Source: Alloascoidea hylecoeti (Eukaryota). Taken from it: a stretch of 64,000 nt of DNA. The position numbers and the translations under genes are program-made. Below are positions 2 through 30,485 of this stretch, piece after piece (position 1 is the stretch's first letter; every line of letters begins with the position of its first letter). The stretch covers positions 1,645,389 to 1,709,388 of the forward strand of contig BCKZ01000001.1 of the NCBI GenBank assembly GCA_001600815.1, in the 5' to 3' direction. Under the pieces are notes generated by a model. The model had not been told where the DNA came from. It was given only the letters and a program-made list of their open reading frames with translations, and did not search any database.

Positions 2-829
2 GATTGCAGCATAAACCTTTCCAAATCCTCAATTATTAACTCATTCAAAAAGCATTATATTAAAGAAATACTGGTATCCAATAATACAGAATATACAAAT
101 ATAAACCAAGCGATTAAGATTTTTGATATATCACAAAGTGAAGATGCAGAGAATCAACTCTCAATGACAATCTCCAAGAAAGATTTCAAATCTATGAAAA
201 TTGTTGGACAATTCAACCTTGGTTTCATTCTTGCAACTAAAAGAAGTGAAAAATCTCTTATAGCTAATCAAGGAATACATGATGATAAGAAGATGGACTT
301 GTTTATTATTGATCAACATGCCTCTGATGAAATCTACAACTTTGAAAGACTCCAACGGGAGACTACATTTCGAAATCAACCTTTAGTTATTCCCAAGATA
401 CTTGAATTGAGTCCTGCTGATGAGCTTATTATCACCTCTAATATAGATGTATTTCTTAGAAATGGGTTTCGATTGAAGATTCATGAGTCAAACCCACCAG
501 GCTCAAAAGTAGAATTAAAGACAATCCCTTTCTCAAAAAATGTGATATTTGATGAGAGAGATTTATATGAATTGATTCATTTGATTTCCGAAAGTCATGG
601 ATCAACATATTCGATTCGGTGTTCCAAAGTTCGAAAGATGTTTGCTTCAAGAGCATGTCGGAGTAGTATTATGATAGGAAAACATTTAAATAAAACTAAA
701 ATGGAAACTGTTGTTGGTCATTTAGGGGAGCTAGAAAAACCTTGGAATTGTCCACATGGAAGGCCTACAATGAGACATTTAATGGAATTTAGTAAATGGA
801 ATGAGTTTACAAAGGATACATTGCCATGA
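2..829 (+). CDS. PMS1: MutL-family mismatch repair endonuclease Pms1, C-terminal part (gene starts before the window)
   Basis: Frame is open from base 2. Motifs GQFNLGFI, DQHASDE(x)4E endonuclease motif, ACR and CPHGRP are diagnostic of Pms1/PMS2. Confidence 0.95.
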   Translation, partial: DCSINLSKSSIINSFKKHYIKEILVSNNTEYTNINQAIKIFDISQSEDAENQLSMTISKKDFKSMKIVGQFNLGFILATKRSEKSLIANQGIHDDKKMDLFIIDQHASDEIYNFERLQRETTFRNQPLVIPKILELSPADELIITSNIDVFLRNGFRLKIHESNPPGSKVELKTIPFSKNVIFDERDLYELIHLISESHGSTYSIRCSKVRKMFASRACRSSIMIGKHLNKTKMETVVGHLGELEKPWNCPHGRPTMRHLMEFSKWNEFTKDTLP

Positions 830-8923: not shown

Positions 8924-10396
8924 TCATTTCTTTAATCTTTCACCAGATTTCCAACCTTCAAAATCAATAAGGGCTTGCATACAGCCCCATTCAGTAATTT
9001 TATTTTGTAGCCAATCTAAATTGACAGGTTTTGTTAAAAAATCATTACAACCAGCAGCAAGAGCTTCTTGACGATCAGAAGCTAAAGTATTTGCAGTTAA
9101 AGCAACAATAATAACAGGAGACCTAAATAAATGAATATTTTGTAAAGTATCTTGATGTGTTGCCAATGCTCCATTACCATTACTGTTACCATTGGAATTA
9201 TTATTATTATTATATTTTAAATTTGCAAAAGAGGTATTATTTCTATAAATACCAATCCTATTAAATTTTTCCAATTTCCTAATTTCTTTTGTTGCATCAA
9301 TACCAGAAATTTTAGGTAAATGAATATCCATTAGAACCAAATGAATACCACCTTGTTTCCATTTTTCAATTGCTTCTTCTCCAGATTTAGCCATTTGATA
9401 ATGAATTTTTCGTTTTCGTAAAAAAGCTGCTAATATAGCTTGATTAATTATATTATCTTCTACTACTAAGATATTAATGTTTGGTAAGACCTGTTCAGTT
9501 GTTGTTGGACGACGTAAATTATTGAGTGGTAAAGCACTTGAAATTGGATTTAATGATAAAGCAGGTTGTTTTTTGGTTTCTATAGGTATTTGAGAAACAA
9601 GGGATTTAATTGGAGGTTTCTGTAAATTTACAACGGGACCTGTATTTTTATTTGATTGTGAAGAATTAGTTATAATATTTTGAGTTTGAATTAAAGTTGT
9701 ATCATTTTCAGAAGTTGTGTTTATATTTGATGTTAGGGTCTTTATTGAATTTGCCGAGTTATCGGATATTACGGATGTAGCGGACGTAGGCGTAATTGGC
9801 GATTTCTGAGGAGGAATTATAGTGCCCGGGGAGTCCGGGTAATCTTTCAGGGAAGGTGTTGTTATTTGCGGAGGTAATTTCTGGGAAGGGATATCGTAAT
9901 TGCGAGGCAGAAGCAGCATCGCATACGAGTCGAGTGGCTTCGACTGTTCCTGATTTAGGACAGGCACCGATTTTGTTCTGCCGTGGAAGTGGGGCACCGC
10001 AGGCACACTGAGGTTGAGCCCCCCCTCAGACACCCCCTCGGGCACAACTGGAACCTCCCTTGACACCGCAGGTACCGGAGGTACAGTAGTACCCTTGGAT
10101 GCACCCCCGCGTGTTTCGATGAGTAAAGCCTCGGCACTGGGCATGCCTCCGGGGAAGTGTGTGTCCAGGAAGGCCATTAGCGGAAGGTCTGCCTCCAGCA
10201 GCTGGGACCGGAAGGAAAAAGATAGATCGGGGGTGTCGAACTCAGCAGCGAGGGAGTGGGGGTACTTGGCGAGGGCCTTCGACTTGAGGTCGTCCACAAT
10301 GTCATCGGATCCGACCATCAGAGACGTGGGGGTGTTCTGCGACGTGCGCACCCACACTCGTGCACGTGAACGGGATGTTGTTAACGTTTTGTGCAT
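8924..10396 (-). CDS. SSK1: HOG-pathway response regulator Ssk1
   Basis: Receiver domain VEDNIIN...LMDIHLP...IVALTA...GCNDFLTKPV, ending in KITEWGCMQALIDF; N-terminal RVWVR...DDIVDDLK block. Confidence 0.93.
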   Translation of the reverse strand: MHKTLTTSRSRARVWVRTSQNTPTSLMVGSDDIVDDLKSKALAKYPHSLAAEFDTPDLSFSFRSQLLEADLPLMAFLDTHFPGGMPSAEALLIETRGGASKGTTVPPVPAVSREVPVVPEGVSEGGLNLSVPAVPHFHGRTKSVPVLNQEQSKPLDSYAMLLLPRNYDIPSQKLPPQITTPSLKDYPDSPGTIIPPQKSPITPTSATSVISDNSANSIKTLTSNINTTSENDTTLIQTQNIITNSSQSNKNTGPVVNLQKPPIKSLVSQIPIETKKQPALSLNPISSALPLNNLRRPTTTEQVLPNINILVVEDNIINQAILAAFLRKRKIHYQMAKSGEEAIEKWKQGGIHLVLMDIHLPKISGIDATKEIRKLEKFNRIGIYRNNTSFANLKYNNNNNSNGNSNGNGALATHQDTLQNIHLFRSPVIIVALTANTLASDRQEALAAGCNDFLTKPVNLDWLQNKITEWGCMQALIDFEGWKSGERLKK

Positions 10397-10520
10397 TTCT
10401 ACCTGTTTGCGTGTTGCTGGTATTAATATTTAATATTTGGTGGTGTGTCCTGCAAATACACCCATACACTCTCGCTCTTCTGAAAATTTATGGTACAAAT
10501 CAATTGCAACGATAAAATAC

Positions 10521-11549
10521 ATGAAACTGCCAAAGGGCCTACATCTAACCGCAAACCATTGTCCTGTGACAAAACTCACTCCGCCCGTCACAACTGCCCG
10601 GGACTTAAGGGGTCCGGTGGCTCCTATTGCTTCCGTTTTATATTCCATGAGAAATTTTCCCACCCCCGCAGTGTATAAATGTGAGTACTTTAATTTAAGA
10701 TTCTATCCTCCAGAACATCCATTAGGTGCTGCTCGAAAATCAAAACCATCTGTTTTTATCCTTTTTAATAAAGAAAATCCTGGTAACACTCTTAATTCTA
10801 ATTTCAATAAATCAATCTTAAAAGAATCGGTAAAAACTAAAAAACATTCAAACTCTGAAAATGAACATCCAACAAAATATGCAATTTGGAGATCAACATT
10901 AAAACAGCGTTTAAAACATATTTTTTGGTCAACTTTTTTAAAATATCAATTGAATGCTCCTGATGGCGTTTATCAATTTCATACCGGTTATGTTCCAATA
11001 AAGCAGGATACTGAATCTTATCATAAACATATGGATAATGCTTTAAAATCTATAATTAATACAACAACTTTTAAAACTTATGAAATGGATAAGTTTATAT
11101 CCTCAACAAATAAATGTGCAAGCCTATCAACTATTTCACGTTTTTTAGAAATTGCTAGCTTACCTGGAATTGATTGGGATTCTTCTAAAAGATCTTATCA
11201 ATTATCAACAATATATGATAATTATCAAAACCAAAATAATAATGATGATGTTTCAAATTTCTCATTATCTGATATACTAAAAAAAAATAATGATGTTTCT
11301 TTTCAAAAAGAATATTTTTTAAAAACTCCAATTAATAATTATTATAAGAAACATATAAAATCAACAATTTCAGCAAAATCTACTTTTTCGAATTCTTCAA
11401 TTAGGTCCAATAGGGGTTCAAATCAAAGTACAAATCTTAAAAGAAATCCAACTTCAAAATTTATTCAGAATTCCAAATCGAGTAATTATAAATCGAAAAC
11501 TCCAAAAATATCATCCAAATATGATAAAGCTGTAGAACCAAAAATATAA
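10521..11549 (+). CDS. Hypothetical basic protein (342 aa), possibly mitochondrial
   Basis: Long ORF. The track's 10437 start is TTG; first ATG is 10521. Lys/Ser-rich; no confident family. Confidence 0.65.
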   Translation: MKLPKGLHLTANHCPVTKLTPPVTTARDLRGPVAPIASVLYSMRNFPTPAVYKCEYFNLRFYPPEHPLGAARKSKPSVFILFNKENPGNTLNSNFNKSILKESVKTKKHSNSENEHPTKYAIWRSTLKQRLKHIFWSTFLKYQLNAPDGVYQFHTGYVPIKQDTESYHKHMDNALKSIINTTTFKTYEMDKFISSTNKCASLSTISRFLEIASLPGIDWDSSKRSYQLSTIYDNYQNQNNNDDVSNFSLSDILKKNNDVSFQKEYFLKTPINNYYKKHIKSTISAKSTFSNSSIRSNRGSNQSTNLKRNPTSKFIQNSKSSNYKSKTPKISSKYDKAVEPKI

Positions 11550-13889: not shown

Positions 13890-14903
13890 ATGGCCAGTTC
13901 ACTTAAAAGGTTAACATTTGGACTTTCTCGGTTCTCAATAGTTGAGAAATTTCATTCATATCATGGATTTGATTGGATTTTAGCAGTTACATTATCATTA
14001 GTTATACTATTATTAGAAAATTCACCACCATTTTATAGACAATTTTCATTAAATGATATGACTATATCACATCCTTTTGCACATGAAGAACGTGTTCCTA
14101 ATGTTTTATGTCTTGTATGTTTTTAAAAATTATTATTTTTTCTATATATAAAAGATGGATTTTTTTACTAACTTCAATATTTTTATTATCATGAAATTTA
14201 GGAAATAGCAGAAGGAGCACCATTTATTGTTATAATTCTATTATCATTAGTATTAGGAGAGAAAGGCGAAAGGGCGCGCTTATTACATGTTTCATTACTA
14301 GGACTATTTGTTTCATTTTCAGTAAATGGATTCTTAACAGATACTTTAAAAAATTGGATTGGAAGGCCAAGACCCGATTTCTTAGAAAGATGTATACCAG
14401 CAGAAGGTACACCAATCGATAAACTTGTTACGGTTGATGTTTGTACACAGAAGAACTTGGCATTGCTAGCAGATGGATTTAGAAGTACACCATCGGGACA
14501 TTCATCAACAAGTTTCCAAGGATTATTTTATTTAACGTTATGGCTATGTGGACAATTATTGGCATTTACAAAAGGAGTTGAGTATTATAGGTTGTTTATT
14601 GCGGCATTACCCACATTAGGAGCAATGCTTATTGCAATTTCAAGAACAGAGGACTATCGACATCATTTCGTGGATGTTATTCTTGGAAGTACATTAGGAT
14701 CGTTGGTGGCTTGGATAACGTATCGGAAATACTTTCCTTCCATTTTCGCGGGAAGGTCGTATGTTCCGCATCCAAGTCCAACGTACTACCACGATGATCT
14801 TGAGTATGGGACGGAGGATCCTGAAAGAGGAGATTATGAGTTGGCAAGAGATTTGGAGGAGTCAGTGGCCACGCCAGAGACACGGGAAGGATCTGAGGTC
14901 TGA
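13890..14903 (+). CDS. DPP1: PAP2-family lipid phosphate phosphatase (Dpp1-like), copy A; exons 13890-14114, 14202-14903
   Basis: Intron GTATGT...TACTAAC...TAG; motifs KNWIGRPRPDF, PSGH, SRTEDYRHHFVD. Confidence 0.9.
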
Positions 14904-15194
14904 GGAATAGATATTTATATACTGTACTGTTTCCAAGAAGAGCAATTTTGAAAGTTTTGAGTGAGAAGAGATTATATATAATTATACTTTTGACCCCCGT
15001 GATCGAGGCAGGCCAATCAGCTTAGTTCGGTGAGACAGCGTATTTCATTTTGTGGCAGTGGTTTGGAGGAAGGGTGTATGCACAGCCTCTTATTTGCATT
15101 TGCAATATATACGACGCAATCTGTCAGGCCCTGTTTCCAGTGTTCCCTGCCCGTCCCCCTGCTCCGCCCCCCCCGCCCCCCCGTCCAAACACAA

Positions 15195-16262
15195 ATGTCC
15201 TTTCCCGAAGGAAATTTCCCCACGCGAAGGCTCACTTTCGGCCTCCACAAGTCCAAAGCCGTTCGTGTATTCCACTTCTACCACGGCTTCGACTGGCTGT
15301 GCGCAATAATCCTCCTCATCATCGTGGGCATCATCTACAAAGTCGACATTTCTCCCTATCATCGGGAGTTTGCTCTGAGTGACACCTCCATTGCCCATTC
15401 CATGAAAAAAGACACCATCTCCTTGACTCTGTGTGGTGTATGTCCATTTTCCTTTCTCTTTTTGTCCAGGTACTAACATCCCTCTTTCCAGATCCTGGCT
15501 GAGCTCATACCCTTGGGCGTCATCATTGTGGGCTCACTGCTGCTACAGGAAGATAAAGGCCGGTACCATCTTTTACACGTCTCGGTACTCGGTCTCGTTA
15601 TGTCCTGTGCCGTCAACCAGGTCATTACAAATGTCGTGAAAAATTGGATAGGGAGACCCCGTCCTGATTTTCTGTCCCGCTGCATTCCAGACGTAGCTGG
15701 AATAACCTCCACTGACAATGTATCTATATATGAAAAAATGTACAACGCTACTATATGTTCCCAAACAGATCAATCGTTAATCAATGAAGGTTATAGAAGC
15801 TGTCCTTCAGGCCATTCTTCAACTGCTTTTCAGGGCTTTTTCTATCTTACCATTTGGTTATGTGGTCAACTATTAACTTTTGGTCCAGGTGTTGAGTATT
15901 TCAGATTGGTTATTGCTGCTTTACCAACAGGCGCGGCTCTATATATCGCAATTACACGAACTGAGAATTATAAACACCATGTTACTGATGTTATAGCTGG
16001 TGCCTTATTAGGTACTTTGGTTTCATGGCTAACTTATAGGAAATTCTTCCCTTCGATTTTTAGTAAAAGATGTTATGCTGCATATGATCCACCAAGCTAT
16101 GATACTTATAATGAAGTGCCGGAATTTGAAAATGAAATCTCAGGTCATGATTTTTTATCTAGAAGGACTACAAGACAAGCTGATGATATTGAAATGAGTA
16201 TTCAATCAACTCAGCGTACCGATCGTGCGTATTATTCTCGTCCAAGTAGTAATCGAACTTGA
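15195..16262 (+). CDS. PAP2-family lipid phosphate phosphatase (Dpp1-like), copy B; exons 15195-15437, 15492-16262
   Basis: Intron GTATGT...TACTAAC...CAG at the same position and phase as copy A; KNWIGRPRPDF, PSGH, TRTENYKHHVTD. Confidence 0.9.
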
Positions 16263-20632: not shown

Positions 20633-20704
20633 AGGCCAAAACCGGATTCGAACCGATAACCTAAGGACTTGCAATCCCACGCGCTGCCATTGCGCCATTT
20701 GGCC
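20633..20704 (-). tRNA. tRNA-Cys (GCA), intronless
   Basis: GGCCAAA/TTTGGCC acceptor stem, GCGC D-stem, anticodon loop TTGCAAG, T-arm ATCGG-TTCGAAT-CCGGT, U73 discriminator, downstream T5 terminator. Confidence 0.93.
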
Positions 20705-25621: not shown

Positions 25622-27857
25622 TTATCTAAGGAATTTACGAAGTCCATGTTTCTTCTTCTTTTCTTTCTTAGGTTCTGGAACAGAAGCAGTAGATGGGGCA
25701 GTTGACAAAGGTTTTACTTGTTGAACAACAGGAGCCGATTGTGCTTGTCCTTGAGGTCTAGTCTGTGGTCTTGATTGAGGAAGAGGATCCGGCTGTAATA
25801 AATAACTTGGAGGGGCATCTGGTTTTAAATTATCATAATCAAGACCTAATTTACGTCTATCAACGGTTAAACCATAAACTGAATTTATAAAACCTTCAGG
25901 ATTTATTATTTCACTACCACCATAATAAACGTCACGATCATATTGTTTTTCTAATTCATAAGCAGATCGCATTTCTGAATATGTAATACCTCCACTAACA
26001 AATAAGAAAATTCTTTGTCTTGGAGCAGAAGATGTTGTATTTTTAGACCAAGCAGCACGATGTTTTTGATTTCGTAAAGAACCACCATTTCCTAGATCAT
26101 CATCTTGGCCATCTATGACAGGTTTATCTTTAACATAAGGAAATAAAGCATCACTTAATTTACCGTTAATAGCCTGTGAAACCAAAGATTTCATTGATGG
26201 AATAAAACGAGAAGTATTATAAGCTCCTTCACCTTCTAATTCATGATAAACCATATTTTTGGGTGGTTTTGTTTTTAAATCTTGTTTTATTGGTTTTAAA
26301 CCAATTTTATTGAAATTGTTTAAAACAGTGAAAAAAAAATCATGTTTATCAATATTTGAATGACTCATTAATTTTTCAAAATCTTCTTTAATAATTCCAC
26401 CACGATAAATAGAATATATTAAAATAAGTCTAAATTTATCATAAATGGAACTCTCATTAGATGCTAATAATTGAATAATATCATCAATTAATGTTTTACA
26501 AGCATCACCGTCTATTGTAATTCCATCAGCAATACAAATTTGTTCTAATTCTGCAATTTCTGATAAGTGTCTCTGTTGGTTTATATTTAGACATTGTTCT
26601 ATAAGTGTTTTATGCAACGTAACACGTCTTCTATCTTCATCAAAATCTTTCAAATGAGCAACAATGTGCAATAAATCAGATGCAGATTTGGCTTCATTTC
26701 TATCTACCATGACAGAATTATTTGAAATCAATTCATTAATACGGTTAGTTATTGCTTGAGAAGCATCCGCTATATGAAGATGACGCATAGATACCCATTC
26801 AATATCATCATCAGATAGTGACCCTTCTCTTTTCAATGACATTCCTTTTTCATCCAAAGCACTATATCTATAAATTCCATCATCTTTAAAAGGAACAACA
26901 TCATATGCCATTGCTTGGTATGTGAATTCATGTAAAATTGGAGAATATAGATCTAAAGTTCTATCAGTAACTAAGAAAATAGATCTAGGGCGAGATGAGG
27001 CAGGCTGGAAATCATCATTATCACGAGCATAAGCATCCAATTGATATTGAAATGCTTCAGCAATCATTTTTGGTAGTATAAAAGCTTCAAAAGATTTATT
27101 TGGATTATCAAAATATCTAATGATTGGGTATTCTCCAGTAACAGCACAAACGCCTACCAGACTTGCAGCTGTTTCACTTACCAAACGATTAATTAAGTCC
27201 ATACATTCCGAATTATAAAACATTTCAAGAGATTTTTTCTTGTTTATGTGGAATATATTTGATTCAAAGGGGACGAAATCGATTTGTAAAGTTTTAATGG
27301 ATTTTATAGCATGAGATTGTTGTATTTTAGCCATTGAATCTTTAGCTATACCAGGAAGAAGAAAGACGTTATAAGTTTTATATCTGCCTATTTTAAGGTC
27401 AGCCAGAAGACAGTTTACATTGAATCTCGTAGGGTCCAGAATATAAATGGCATCAAAGGAACGTTGCTGTTTTCTCCTAGAATTTATCTTTTCAACGGCT
27501 ACAAAACGCTATTAGGAAGAGTAAAAGGACGTAAGTGTAAGATGTGGAAGAACATACCGGAAACCTGCCTTAGGAGTTCTGTCTCGGGAATAAGGTTTTT
27601 GACGAGTTTGTCTGTTTTTTCATCCAGAATTAAGTATTTAAGCTACATTTCCATAAATATGATAAATGTTAGGGCCCACCCATAATGAGAAAGAATAATG
27701 GCAGCACATACATAATTTTGGGCCTGAACGGATTGAATAGCAGACACGATGCCTATGAAATGTGAGGGTTAGAGTTGAGAGGAGTGGCATGGCGATAAAC
27801 AGGACAAACATGGCAATACTTACTGGATTTCTGCAACTCCCGCAAGGAGATGGGCAT
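25622..27857 (-). CDS. SEC1: SM protein Sec1; exons 27857-27824, 27752-27712, 27642-27558, 27498-25622
   Basis: Three canonical-donor introns give MPISLRELQKS...KYLILD...DAIYILDP. Body has GEYPIIRY, DRTLD..SPILHEFTYQAMAYD, RHLHI and GGITYSEMRSAYEL. Confidence 0.93.
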
Positions 27858-27957
27858 TTTTGCAGGAATAGAGTAAACACAGTTTTTTGAGGACGAAGAA
27901 TGTACCACTTGTTTGGACTAATGTCTGCTTGGCGCTTACCCGGCCTCCCATCAGCAG

Positions 27958-27965
27958 TATAAATA
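27958..27965 (+). promoter_or_regulatory. TATA box of the U2-like gene
   Basis: TATAAATA begins about 27 nt upstream of the inferred 5' end of the U2-like RNA. Confidence 0.6.
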
Positions 27966-27984
27966 GCACAGGTCCCACTCCTCC

Positions 27985-28160
27985 AAAGCTCCTTCCTTCT
28001 GGCTTAGATCAAGTGTAGTGTCTGTTCTTTTCTGGAATGGTACCATCGGTGCCCACTTTATGTTGCTCTTATTTTTGGACCCGGCGGTCGAGTCCCCCAG
28101 ACTTGCCTATGGCCCGTGGCACGGTGTCGATGCTGCTGCACCCCAGGCAGTTGACGCGGA
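27985..28160 (+). ncRNA. Divergent U2 snRNA (variant or paralog); ends approximate
   Basis: TGGCTTAGATCAAGTGTAGTGTCTGTTCTTTTC (28000-28032) matches the fungal U2 core except A>G at 28020. Sm site ATTTTTG at 28071-28077. 3' stems GAGTC/GACTT and GTGTCGA...CTGCAC...TTGACGC. Confidence 0.85.
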
Positions 28161-28384
28161 TCCCCTTTAGTTATGTCTCTCGGTAGGCTTATCCAAAGGA
28201 GAACTTGCCCTTTTATTTCGTATCAGTGCTAGTATTCTGTGCTTGTGTAGGTTCCATGTAAGATAAGGCACCAGGATGTACGGAGATCGTGTGCTCTTGT
28301 GTGATGCTGACGTTGTACGGACTTCTCCTGTGGTGTGGACCTCCTACGGACTGACTTCTCCTTGTTTCCATTTACAACTACAAC

Positions 28385-30485
28385 ATGTCCCTCCAGAATG
28401 AAAACAAACTATCTGCCCTTCGTAGAGTAATGAAGGAGCGTGATATCTCCGTTTATAGTATGATTAGATAATTGTCGAAATACACGCTTGAAATTTTTAT
28501 GTCTAACTATGAATTTTAGTTGTTCCTTCGGAGGATGAACATCAGAGTGAATATACCAGCCCAGCTGATCAAAGAAGAGAATTTATCTCAGGCATGTGAA
28601 TCATTACTTTATTAATATATTTCTTTTATTCTATTTACTTACCTCTTCCTATTCAGGTTTTACTGGTTCTGCTGGAATTGCCATCATCACCATTGATGAA
28701 GCCGCTTTATCAACTGATGGTCGATATTTCCTTCAAGCAAGCAAACAACTAGGTGACGATTGGCGTTTAATTAAACAAGGTGTCAAAGGAGAGCCTAATT
28801 GGAAGAATTTTGCCGTTGATAAAGCAATTGAAATCTCTCGATCACAATTAGTTGAAAAAAAATCTGTAAAAATTGGTGTTGATCCGACTTTAATTACCGA
28901 TTCTAACGCAAATGGGTTGAAAAAACTAATACAAAATAAAATATCTGCTATTAATTCAGTTTCTGATAATGATAATGAAAATAATATTATTGATGTTCAA
29001 CTGTTCCCCCTGACTGAAAACCTAATCGATTTAATATGGAATCAATTTGAGGAAAAACCAAACAGACCATTAGATCAAATCTTCATTCAAGGCTTGAAAT
29101 ATACAGGTCTTGATTTTGATCGTAAAATAGAAAAAGTAAGAGAAGAATTGACAACGCTTAATGGTTTATGTTTTGTTGTTACTGCTCTTGATGAAATTGC
29201 ATGGCTATTTAATTTAAGGGGTGCTGATATTCCATATAATCCAGTGTTTTTTTCATATGCTTTAATTACACCGACAAAAGTAATATTATATATAAATGAT
29301 GTTAAAGTTCCAAATGATGTTAAGGAATTATTATTATCATTTGAGGGATTTGAAATTAAAGATTATAATCAAATATGGAATGATGCTAAAGAATTAAGGA
29401 GTAAAATCGTTGAATTAAGATCTAATTCAATTAAATCATCATCTCTTGAATCACAAGAAGTTAGGGGGAAATCTCTATTCCTTGCTTCAACAACTGCTTC
29501 CTGGGAATTAGTGAATGCTTTTGGAGAAGAAAATGTTCAACTTATTTCTTCCCCTGTGGAAATATTAAAAGGTCAAAAGGATGAAGTTGAAATTCAAGGA
29601 CAGAAAAATGCACATATTAAGGATGGCGTTGCACTTGTGAGGTATTTCTCTTGGCTTGAACAACAGTTAAACAATGGCGCTACATTAGATGAAGTCGAAG
29701 CAGCTGATAAATCAACTGAATTTAGACAACAAATGGAAGACTTTGTTGGACTTAGTTTTGATACAATCTCTTCAACAGGTAAAAACGCTGCAATTATTCA
29801 TTATTCTCCCATTAAAGGACAATGCTCTATCATTGATTCTAATGAAATATATTTGAATGATACTGGTGCACAGTATCGGGATGGAACAACTGATACAACA
29901 CGAACTCTTCATTTTGGAACACCAAAAGAAAATGAAATACATGCCTACACTTTAGTTCTAAAAGGTCATATTGCGGTTGCTACTGCAGTGTTCCCAGAAG
30001 GTGCAAATGGGTATATGTTAGATACATTAGCAAGACAATATTTATGGTCTGAAGGTCTCGATTATAGACATGGAACAGGTCATGGTGTAGGTTCATTCCT
30101 AAATGTTCATGAGGGTCCATTCGGTATAGGAAGTGGCTCTACATATAGTAAAGTACCTCTTAAGATTGGAAATGTTTGTTCGAACGAACCAGGATATTAT
30201 GAAGATGGGAAATTTGGAATTAGAATTGAAAGTATAGTAGTTGTGACAGAAGCAAAGACACCTAATCATTTTGAAGGTAAGAAGTTTCTTCAATTTGAAA
30301 CAATCACGATGGTTCCCTTATGTCGCAAGTTAATTGATATTAAGTTATTGACTCAGAAAGAGATCGATTGGATTGATGAATATCACAAGAAAGTTTATTA
30401 TACAATCGAGAAATATTTTGGAAAGGATGAAATTGCTTTTGCATGGTTGAAAAGAGAGACAGCCCCATTGGAAGTGAATAAATAA
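28385..30485 (+). CDS. FRA1: Aminopeptidase P (Fra1/XPNPEP1, M24B); exons 28385-28457, 28520-28591, 28657-30485
   Basis: Splicing restores YIVPSEDEHQSEY...RREFISGFTGSAG. Metal ligands in DTGAQY.DGTTD, HGTGHGVG...VHEGP, NEPGYY and GIRIE. Confidence 0.92.

Follow-up and report, generated by a model that had tools for sequence, protein, structure and literature searches.

The 64-kb stretch of DNA analyzed here (the window) contains a U2-like snRNA gene, flanked by the starts of two protein genes, one of the Sec1 family and one for aminopeptidase P. The Rfam covariance model for U2 (RF00004) matches positions 27985-28166 of the plus strand with 64.3 bits against a gathering score of 46 (E = 2.2e-10), and this interval covers the model over its full length, from model position 1 to 192. 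No other U2 match was found in the window, whether at the gathering threshold or at E values up to 0.1, and no repeat of the locus occurs elsewhere in the window beyond one chance 14-mer. The features of the locus and the evidence for each are listed below, where X1 and X4 are two sequencing runs and the second copy is a canonical-type U2 sequence on a further contig of X4.

25622..27857, minus strand: Sec1-family gene, ATG at 27857-27855 (Pfam PF00995, E = 4.8e-98)
27958..27966, plus strand: TATA box TATAAATAG, 27 bases upstream of where the U2 match begins (read in the sequence)
27985..28166, plus strand: U2-like snRNA gene, taken here as a diverged paralogue (Rfam RF00004)
27985..28008, plus strand: 5' end and weakened stem I (Rfam alignment, comparison with the second copy, folding)
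27995..28032, plus strand: conserved U2 core, comprising the U6-pairing region, the branch-pairing hexamer and UCUGUUCUU (shared with the second contig of X4)
28015..28020, plus strand: branch-point recognition hexamer GTAGTG, consensus GTAGTA (sequence, Rfam, contigs of X1 and X4)
28024..28038, plus strand: site of the missing stem-loop IIa (comparison with the second copy, Rfam)
28039..28053, plus strand: stem-loop IIb, GGUACC-AUC-GGUGCC (Rfam stem IIb; -6.9 kcal/mol)
28061..28066, plus strand: orphan 3' strand of stem IIc, UGUUGC (pairing by hand against the second copy)
28071..28078, plus strand: Sm site ATTTTTGG, in RNA AUUUUUGG (sequence; fits the Rfam consensus AUUUUUgg)
28083..28114, plus strand: 3' stem-loop III (minimum-free-energy and centroid folds)
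28124..28157, plus strand: 3' stem-loop IV, with CUGCAC at the loop, 28136-28141 (minimum-free-energy and centroid folds)
28385..30485, plus strand: aminopeptidase P (FRA1-like) gene, ATG at 28385 (Pfam M24, Creatinase_N and Creatinase_N_2)

Frame reading places three short introns in the Sec1-family gene (27823-27753, 27711-27643 and 27557-27499) and two in the aminopeptidase P gene (28458-28519 and 28592-28656). Five introns in two adjacent genes make for an intron-rich region in a budding-yeast-like genome; they are short, at 59-71 bases, and their branch sites fit nnCUAAC rather than a strict UACUAAC (27499-27823, minus strand; 28458-28519, plus strand). In the aminopeptidase P gene, intron 2 looks like a GC-AG intron, with GCATGT as its 5' site and ...ttcag as its end, and only the GC-AG junction joins ...REFISG to FTGSAG in frame. 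The best named homologues of the aminopeptidase, called Fra1p or Xaa-Pro aminopeptidase, come from Blastobotrys, Trichomonascus, Nadsonia, Geotrichum and Sugiyamaella, with Pezizomycotina about equally distant; because these homologues are only 50-53% identical, the DNA appears to come from an isolated yeast-like ascomycete with no close relative in the database searched.

The window has a G+C content of 32%, while the interval that holds the U2-like gene and the starts of its neighbors (27650-28500) reaches about 50%. It is one of three GC-rich islands (45-60% G+C), the others lying at about 9700-10700 and 14800-15600, and the first of these spans a promoter together with the 5' part of its gene, which lies on the minus strand (8924-10396); the islands could be the product of GC-biased gene conversion at promoter hotspots. 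Between the Sec1-family and U2-like genes, 15 bases upstream of the TATA box, the sequence TTACCCGG at 27936-27943 presumably resembles a Reb1-type promoter motif of budding yeasts. Elsewhere in the window, a tRNA gene is present at 20633-20704 on the minus strand (RF00005, 60.4 bits), with the anticodon loop ..UUGCAAG.. and, by eye, the anticodon GCA (Cys).

The initial annotation described this locus as a variant U2 with an altered branch-point recognition motif and a remodeled stem II, and the individual sequence features that it named are borne out. The U2 core that it placed at 28000-28032 is present and extends over 27995-28032, where the U6-pairing region GCUUAGAUCAAGUGUAGU is followed by UCUGUUCUU and where all positions that Rfam writes in upper case are identical except the last base of the hexamer; the departures from the Rfam consensus within the core fall at 27999 and 28020. 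GUAGUA is almost invariant in U2, and the hexamer at 28015-28020 indeed reads GTAGTG, both in the sequence and in the contigs of X1 and X4. Stem I, also said to be altered, reads TCCTTCTGGC at 27994-28003 and enters the Rfam alignment with non-standard pairs and two deleted positions; its upper part is down to two C-G pairs, and the segment 27985-28008 folded alone yields only -2.5 kcal/mol.

The most extensive departure concerns stem II. In S. cerevisiae, stem IIa is essential. The replacement of this element that the initial annotation had proposed is evident at 28029-28053, which reads TTTCTGGAATGGTACCATCGGTGCC where U2 normally has stem-loop IIa and then stem-loop IIb, and only one base of stem-loop IIa is aligned against the 12 in the Rfam model. 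A substitute hairpin, GUUCU/GGAAU, is possible at 28024-28038 and is weak, at -1.5 kcal/mol versus -6.9 kcal/mol for stem-loop IIb. The TGTTGC element, which had been likened to a stem IIc strand, stands before the Sm site at 28061-28066.

Outside these regions the gene has the remaining parts of a U2 locus. The TATA box, the Sm site and the two 3' hairpins with the CTGCAC motif (28136-28141) are all present as first described. The TATA box matches the TATAWAWR consensus, on the plus strand only, and its distance from the U2 match suggests that it belongs to the U2-like gene. Stem-loop IV has 12 pairs, four of which are G.U, and its CUGCAC corresponds to the Rfam consensus loop UUgCAc, whereas stem-loop III is aligned by Rfam with several non-standard pairs. 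Folding energies compared with shuffled sequences were not significant, either for the U2-like RNA (z = 1.18) or for the 226 bases downstream (z = 0.46). No A-tail was seen in the flanks of the gene, which are unlike those of a retrocopy. Nrd1/Nab3-type terminator motifs downstream were considered and dropped, as the counts made by eye, three and two over about 110 bases, do not clearly exceed chance.

Four DNA sequencing runs contain the stretch, and no RNA run was among those found to contain it. Of four runs whose contigs were compared with the locus, X9 and X10, from other organisms of the X4 study, gave no aligned contig. A contig of X1, a wood-decay metagenome and possibly the source of this DNA, spans 27900-28260 with no other letters at a depth of 9.85, and a contig of X4, which carries the same organism label and comes from another study, spans 27962-28260 with no other letters at a depth of 6.95; X4 differs only by an additional C behind 27979, which lies upstream of the RNA. 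The comparison was made at 80% likeness with contigs, in which rare variants are invisible. An A at 28020, which according to the initial annotation might appear in the reads, does not occur in the contigs (as opposed to reads) of X1 and X4, which show only G. Two metatranscriptome runs of the same study contained next to no sequence words of the locus.

The same X4 run contains a second U2 sequence. This 882-base contig (record 4, at a depth of 7.4 versus 6.95 for record 3, which carries the window copy) fits the window only at 27995-28032, with 2 of the 38 letters different. Before 27995 it reads ...CAGCAAATCTCTTTG, and behind 28032 it reads AGTGTAACAACTGAAATGGCATCATCGATG, including a standard stem IIa loop AGTGTAACAACTGAAA... 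that is without counterpart in the window copy; we take this continuation to be a full stem IIa with the loop quoted for S. cerevisiae in the initial annotation. Stem IIa is followed by stem IIb, GGCAUC-AUC-GAUG.., which is equal in length to that of the window copy and has the AUC loop in common with it, the differences being one two-sided change (U-A to C-G) and one change of C-G to U.G. The two core differences likely fall at 27999 and 28020, to judge from the departures from the Rfam consensus there, and the base equivalent to 28020 in the second copy would then be A.

Because a lineage-specific IIb hairpin is common to both X4 contigs and their depths are equal, the two contigs appear to derive from the same genome, and the shared IIb length and AUC loop argue further for a single lineage since the nearest named organisms are only 50-53% identical in a conserved enzyme. 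On this sequence evidence, a canonical-type U2 gene exists elsewhere in the same organism, as seen in one contig of one run. The initial annotation had named a canonical U2 elsewhere as one part of what would count against its reading, and X4 supplies one; its proposal that the window gene is the lineage's own, specific U2 does not hold, as the second contig at equal depth carries the U2 core with a standard stem IIa. A further U2 piece in X1 (record 2, 159 bases, depth 2), aligned to 27995-28029, belongs to another organism, with four core differences and a different stem IIa (..GTTCAGGTTAATCTCTGAC..).

Comparison of the two copies, with the canonical-type copy assumed to be ancestral, defines the changes in the window gene. 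Over 27985-28008 there are one T-to-G and two T-to-C changes, of which the 5' end accounts for one of each kind, and stem I has lost the G on which its upper part closes; the core contains two changes. Between 28032 and 28033 the window gene lacks eleven bases of the second copy (AGTGTAACAAC), a gap that takes part of the 5' strand of stem IIa, its whole loop and the first base of its 3' strand, and the 19 bases after the gap contain four changes, at 28035, 28041, 28043 and 28049. When paired by hand with GUAACA, part of the second copy's IIa loop, UGUUGC at 28061-28066 matches at six of six positions, one of them as G.U, which identifies UGUUGC as the 3' strand of stem IIc, the partner of which has been lost from the window copy.

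The distribution of these changes is uneven. In the core, 2 of 38 positions differ, as opposed to 7 of 34 in those parts of the flanks that could be aligned; a one-sided Fisher test gives p = 0.053, and a binomial test with 7/34 as the neutral rate gives p = 0.009. The better-kept core hints at retained constraint or gene conversion. All three changes within stem IIb preserve pairing, a weak signal given that pairing was kept by chance in 41% of random-transition trials and in 11% when a two-sided change was included. The A-to-G change at 28035 makes a C-G pair in the mini-hairpin GUUCU/GGAAU, and the A-to-G change at 28020 is the mildest possible one, leaving a base that is able to pair with U or C at branch position 1. 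Of the eight substitutions, seven replace A/T by G/C, a bias that fits GC-biased gene conversion as well as selection.

According to one study, S. cerevisiae requires full complementarity to GUAGUA, which gives a strict UACUAAC, other species are more relaxed, and U32 of human U2 is paired next to the loop of the branchpoint-interacting stem-loop (NAR 2026, PMC13019295). By our own numbering, the partner of U32 would be the last A of GUAGUA, and the pair would become U.G in the window copy; the last base of the hexamer therefore probably matters in the branchpoint-interacting stem-loop as well. The introns of the window offer a view of the other side of the pairing. A motif-based scan gave 78 candidates, most of them false, which was too much noise for statistics on branch sites, and among the five introns that were checked by reading frame the branch sites are CTCTAAC, CCCTAAC, GTCTAAC and two ambiguous ones (TCCTAAT or CACTTAC; TACTTAC), while TACTAAC was seen at five other places in the window where the context resembles an intron. 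From this small sample, branch position 1 does not look constrained, and since it looks free, the G of the hexamer neither needs nor defines a special class of introns.

Stem IIa, for its part, promotes the association between U2 and the branch site and the formation of the prespliceosome, and it is mutually exclusive with stem IIc, the two alternating, in the current model, through assembly and catalysis (RNA 2016, PMC4712673). The window RNA would have neither stem IIa nor a partner for its IIc strand, and the normal U2 cycle of branch-site engagement would be impossible without the IIa/IIc switch.

The hexamer GUAGUG was also sought beyond the window. A 22-mer containing it gave no match in the genome-contig collection and matched three loci in the metagenome collection, all three of them non-standard U2 copies and none related to the window gene. 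Two of these (L001, 1917-2096, and L003, 806-985, both plus strand) are near-identical full-length U2-like sequences of 55.3 bits that read ..GACUUGUAUG.. instead of AUUUUUGG at the Sm position and are without a canonical Sm site. The third (L002, 354-375, minus strand) is a core fragment of about 30 bases located about 230 bases upstream of a canonical GUAGUA U2 of fungal type (10-122, minus strand), which scores 71.8 bits, versus 64.3 for the window copy, even though it is cut at the Sm site by the contig end. Our search of the open-access literature for GUAGUG in connection with U2 snRNA, or for a second U2 in a yeast, returned nothing.

Set against known systems, the window copy resembles canonical fungal U2 (RF00004, including the second copy) in its 5' U6-pairing region and UCUGUUCUU, its stem IIb, its Sm site AUUUUUGG and its stem-loops III and IV with a loop of the UGCAC type, and likewise in having a TATA promoter and being about 180 nt long; it differs from canonical U2 in the hexamer GUAGUG, the absence of stem-loop IIa, the reduced stem I and the partnerless IIc strand. 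With snRNA pseudogenes it has in common lesions in conserved modules beside an intact gene, as is the case for the metagenome GUAGUG copies, whereas its well-placed TATA box and perfect Sm site set it apart from them. U12 is a second branch-site-pairing snRNA that exists beside U2 in many eukaryotes. Here the best match within the clan (CL00006) is U2, the branch- and U6-pairing sequences are of U2 type, and no sign of a minor spliceosome was seen. Another parallel is provided by the human variant U2 genes (RNU2 'P' genes), some of which are expressed at low levels and enter snRNPs and spliceosomes, including some with a changed branch-point recognition sequence, while others are Sm-bound and never reach spliceosomes (RNA 2021, PMC8457000). 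The human variants form a large multigene family in a large genome, whereas here the genome is compact, AT-rich and yeast-like and appears to carry one extra copy.

Taken together, these observations indicate that the window holds a diverged paralogue rather than the organism's working U2, and we see an even chance that this paralogue is a crippled relic that is perhaps still transcribed. A pseudogene is somewhat more likely than a second, specialized snRNA, judging from sequence, because three near-invariant modules are altered while an intact copy exists: relative to the canonical-type copy, the lesions are the gap in stem-loop IIa, the loss of the G in stem I and the probable A-to-G change in the hexamer. 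The modest Rfam score and the finding of GUAGUG, in the metagenome collection, only in defective copies also speak for decay. It is the missing IIa/IIc switch that would most likely make the RNA a crippled relic. Such an RNA may still be transcribed and bound by Sm proteins, and its contribution to splicing would be little or none. The predominance of AT-to-GC changes, in a GC-rich island at the 5' ends of genes, would then fit passive drift at a promoter hotspot subject to GC-biased gene conversion. The reading of the gene as a relic is weakened by the fact that the second copy is seen in one contig of one run, that the A of its hexamer is deduced and that the polarity of the changes is assumed.

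Several features also point away from a relic and toward a working variant U2, which we tentatively hold to be possible. Such a gene would be transcribed from its own TATA promoter, bind Sm and stem-loop IV proteins and form a minor U2 snRNP with a fixed stem II, the hexamer of which could accept C or U at branch position 1; this snRNP would serve a subset of introns or else compete for U2 proteins as a modulator or decoy. Consistent with this, the TATA box is well placed 27 bases upstream, the Sm site is perfect, the U6-pairing core and stem-loops IIb, III and IV are retained, the latter with its loop motif, and the change in the hexamer is mild. Moreover, the core is less changed than the flanks (p about 0.05), the changes in stem IIb preserve its structure, and the one at 28035 adds a C-G pair to the possible mini-hairpin. 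That dead snRNA copies seldom persist in compact yeast genomes also counts in favor of a working variant. On the other hand, stem-loop IIa is lost and its substitute is feeble, stem I is weakened, and the introns give no sign of a class that needs the G. None of the statistical hints is more than marginal, and the same substitutions could arise through GC-biased conversion. Precedent does exist in human cells (PMC8457000). We consider it rather unlikely that, in a budding-yeast-like fungus of early divergence, a second U2 that is unable to switch between stems IIa and IIc and whose hexamer ends in G has been kept and is expressed, where it would serve as an alternative snRNP for introns with relaxed branch sites or as a competitor for U2 proteins.

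It is very unlikely that the window copy is the organism's only, remodeled U2, with the canonical-type contig of X4 contributed by another organism in the culture or library. The canonical-type copy is indeed confined to one contig of one run, and none is present among the X1 contigs even though the locus has a depth of 9.85 there; this absence is no proof, and in a metagenome a U2 core shared among all fungi would also break contigs. Against a sole U2 stand the equal depths of the X4 contigs (7.4 and 6.95), the close homology of the second copy's stem IIb (three changes) given that no sequenced organism in the database searched is close, and the lack of precedent in the Rfam consensus for a U2 without stem IIa.

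We give still less credence to the U2-like sequence being, instead of an independent gene, part of a long 5' leader of the aminopeptidase P mRNA or of a shared promoter region. No TATA box was seen in the 220 bases between the 3' end of the U2-like sequence and the ATG at 28385, and the interval 27650-28500 forms one GC-rich island; yet promoters without a TATA box are common, the 27-base spacing from TATA box to 5' end suits the start of an snRNA, and about 400 bases is long for a leader, given the short genes found here. Assembly or sequencing errors behind the G at 28020 and the stem IIa gap, an option that the initial annotation had kept, were rejected and have a negligible probability: nothing was found in their support, and the contigs of two studies agree without another letter over 27962-28260, so the G and the short stem II region are not an assembly slip.

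These considerations bear on how the locus should be regarded. Few features of the spliceosome are as conserved as GUAGUA and stem IIa, and a sole U2 without them would have been remarkable; as an additional copy next to a normal gene, the locus instead groups with the variant and pseudogene snRNA copies of larger genomes. It is uncommon for compact yeast-like genomes to carry a single extra snRNA copy. For annotation, the locus 27985-28166 is not to be taken as the organism's U2 gene. If the gene is expressed, it would provide a natural U2 without stem IIa in which the need for stem II toggling could be tested, and if it does form an alternative snRNP, the organism would represent a natural experiment on whether stem IIa is dispensable.
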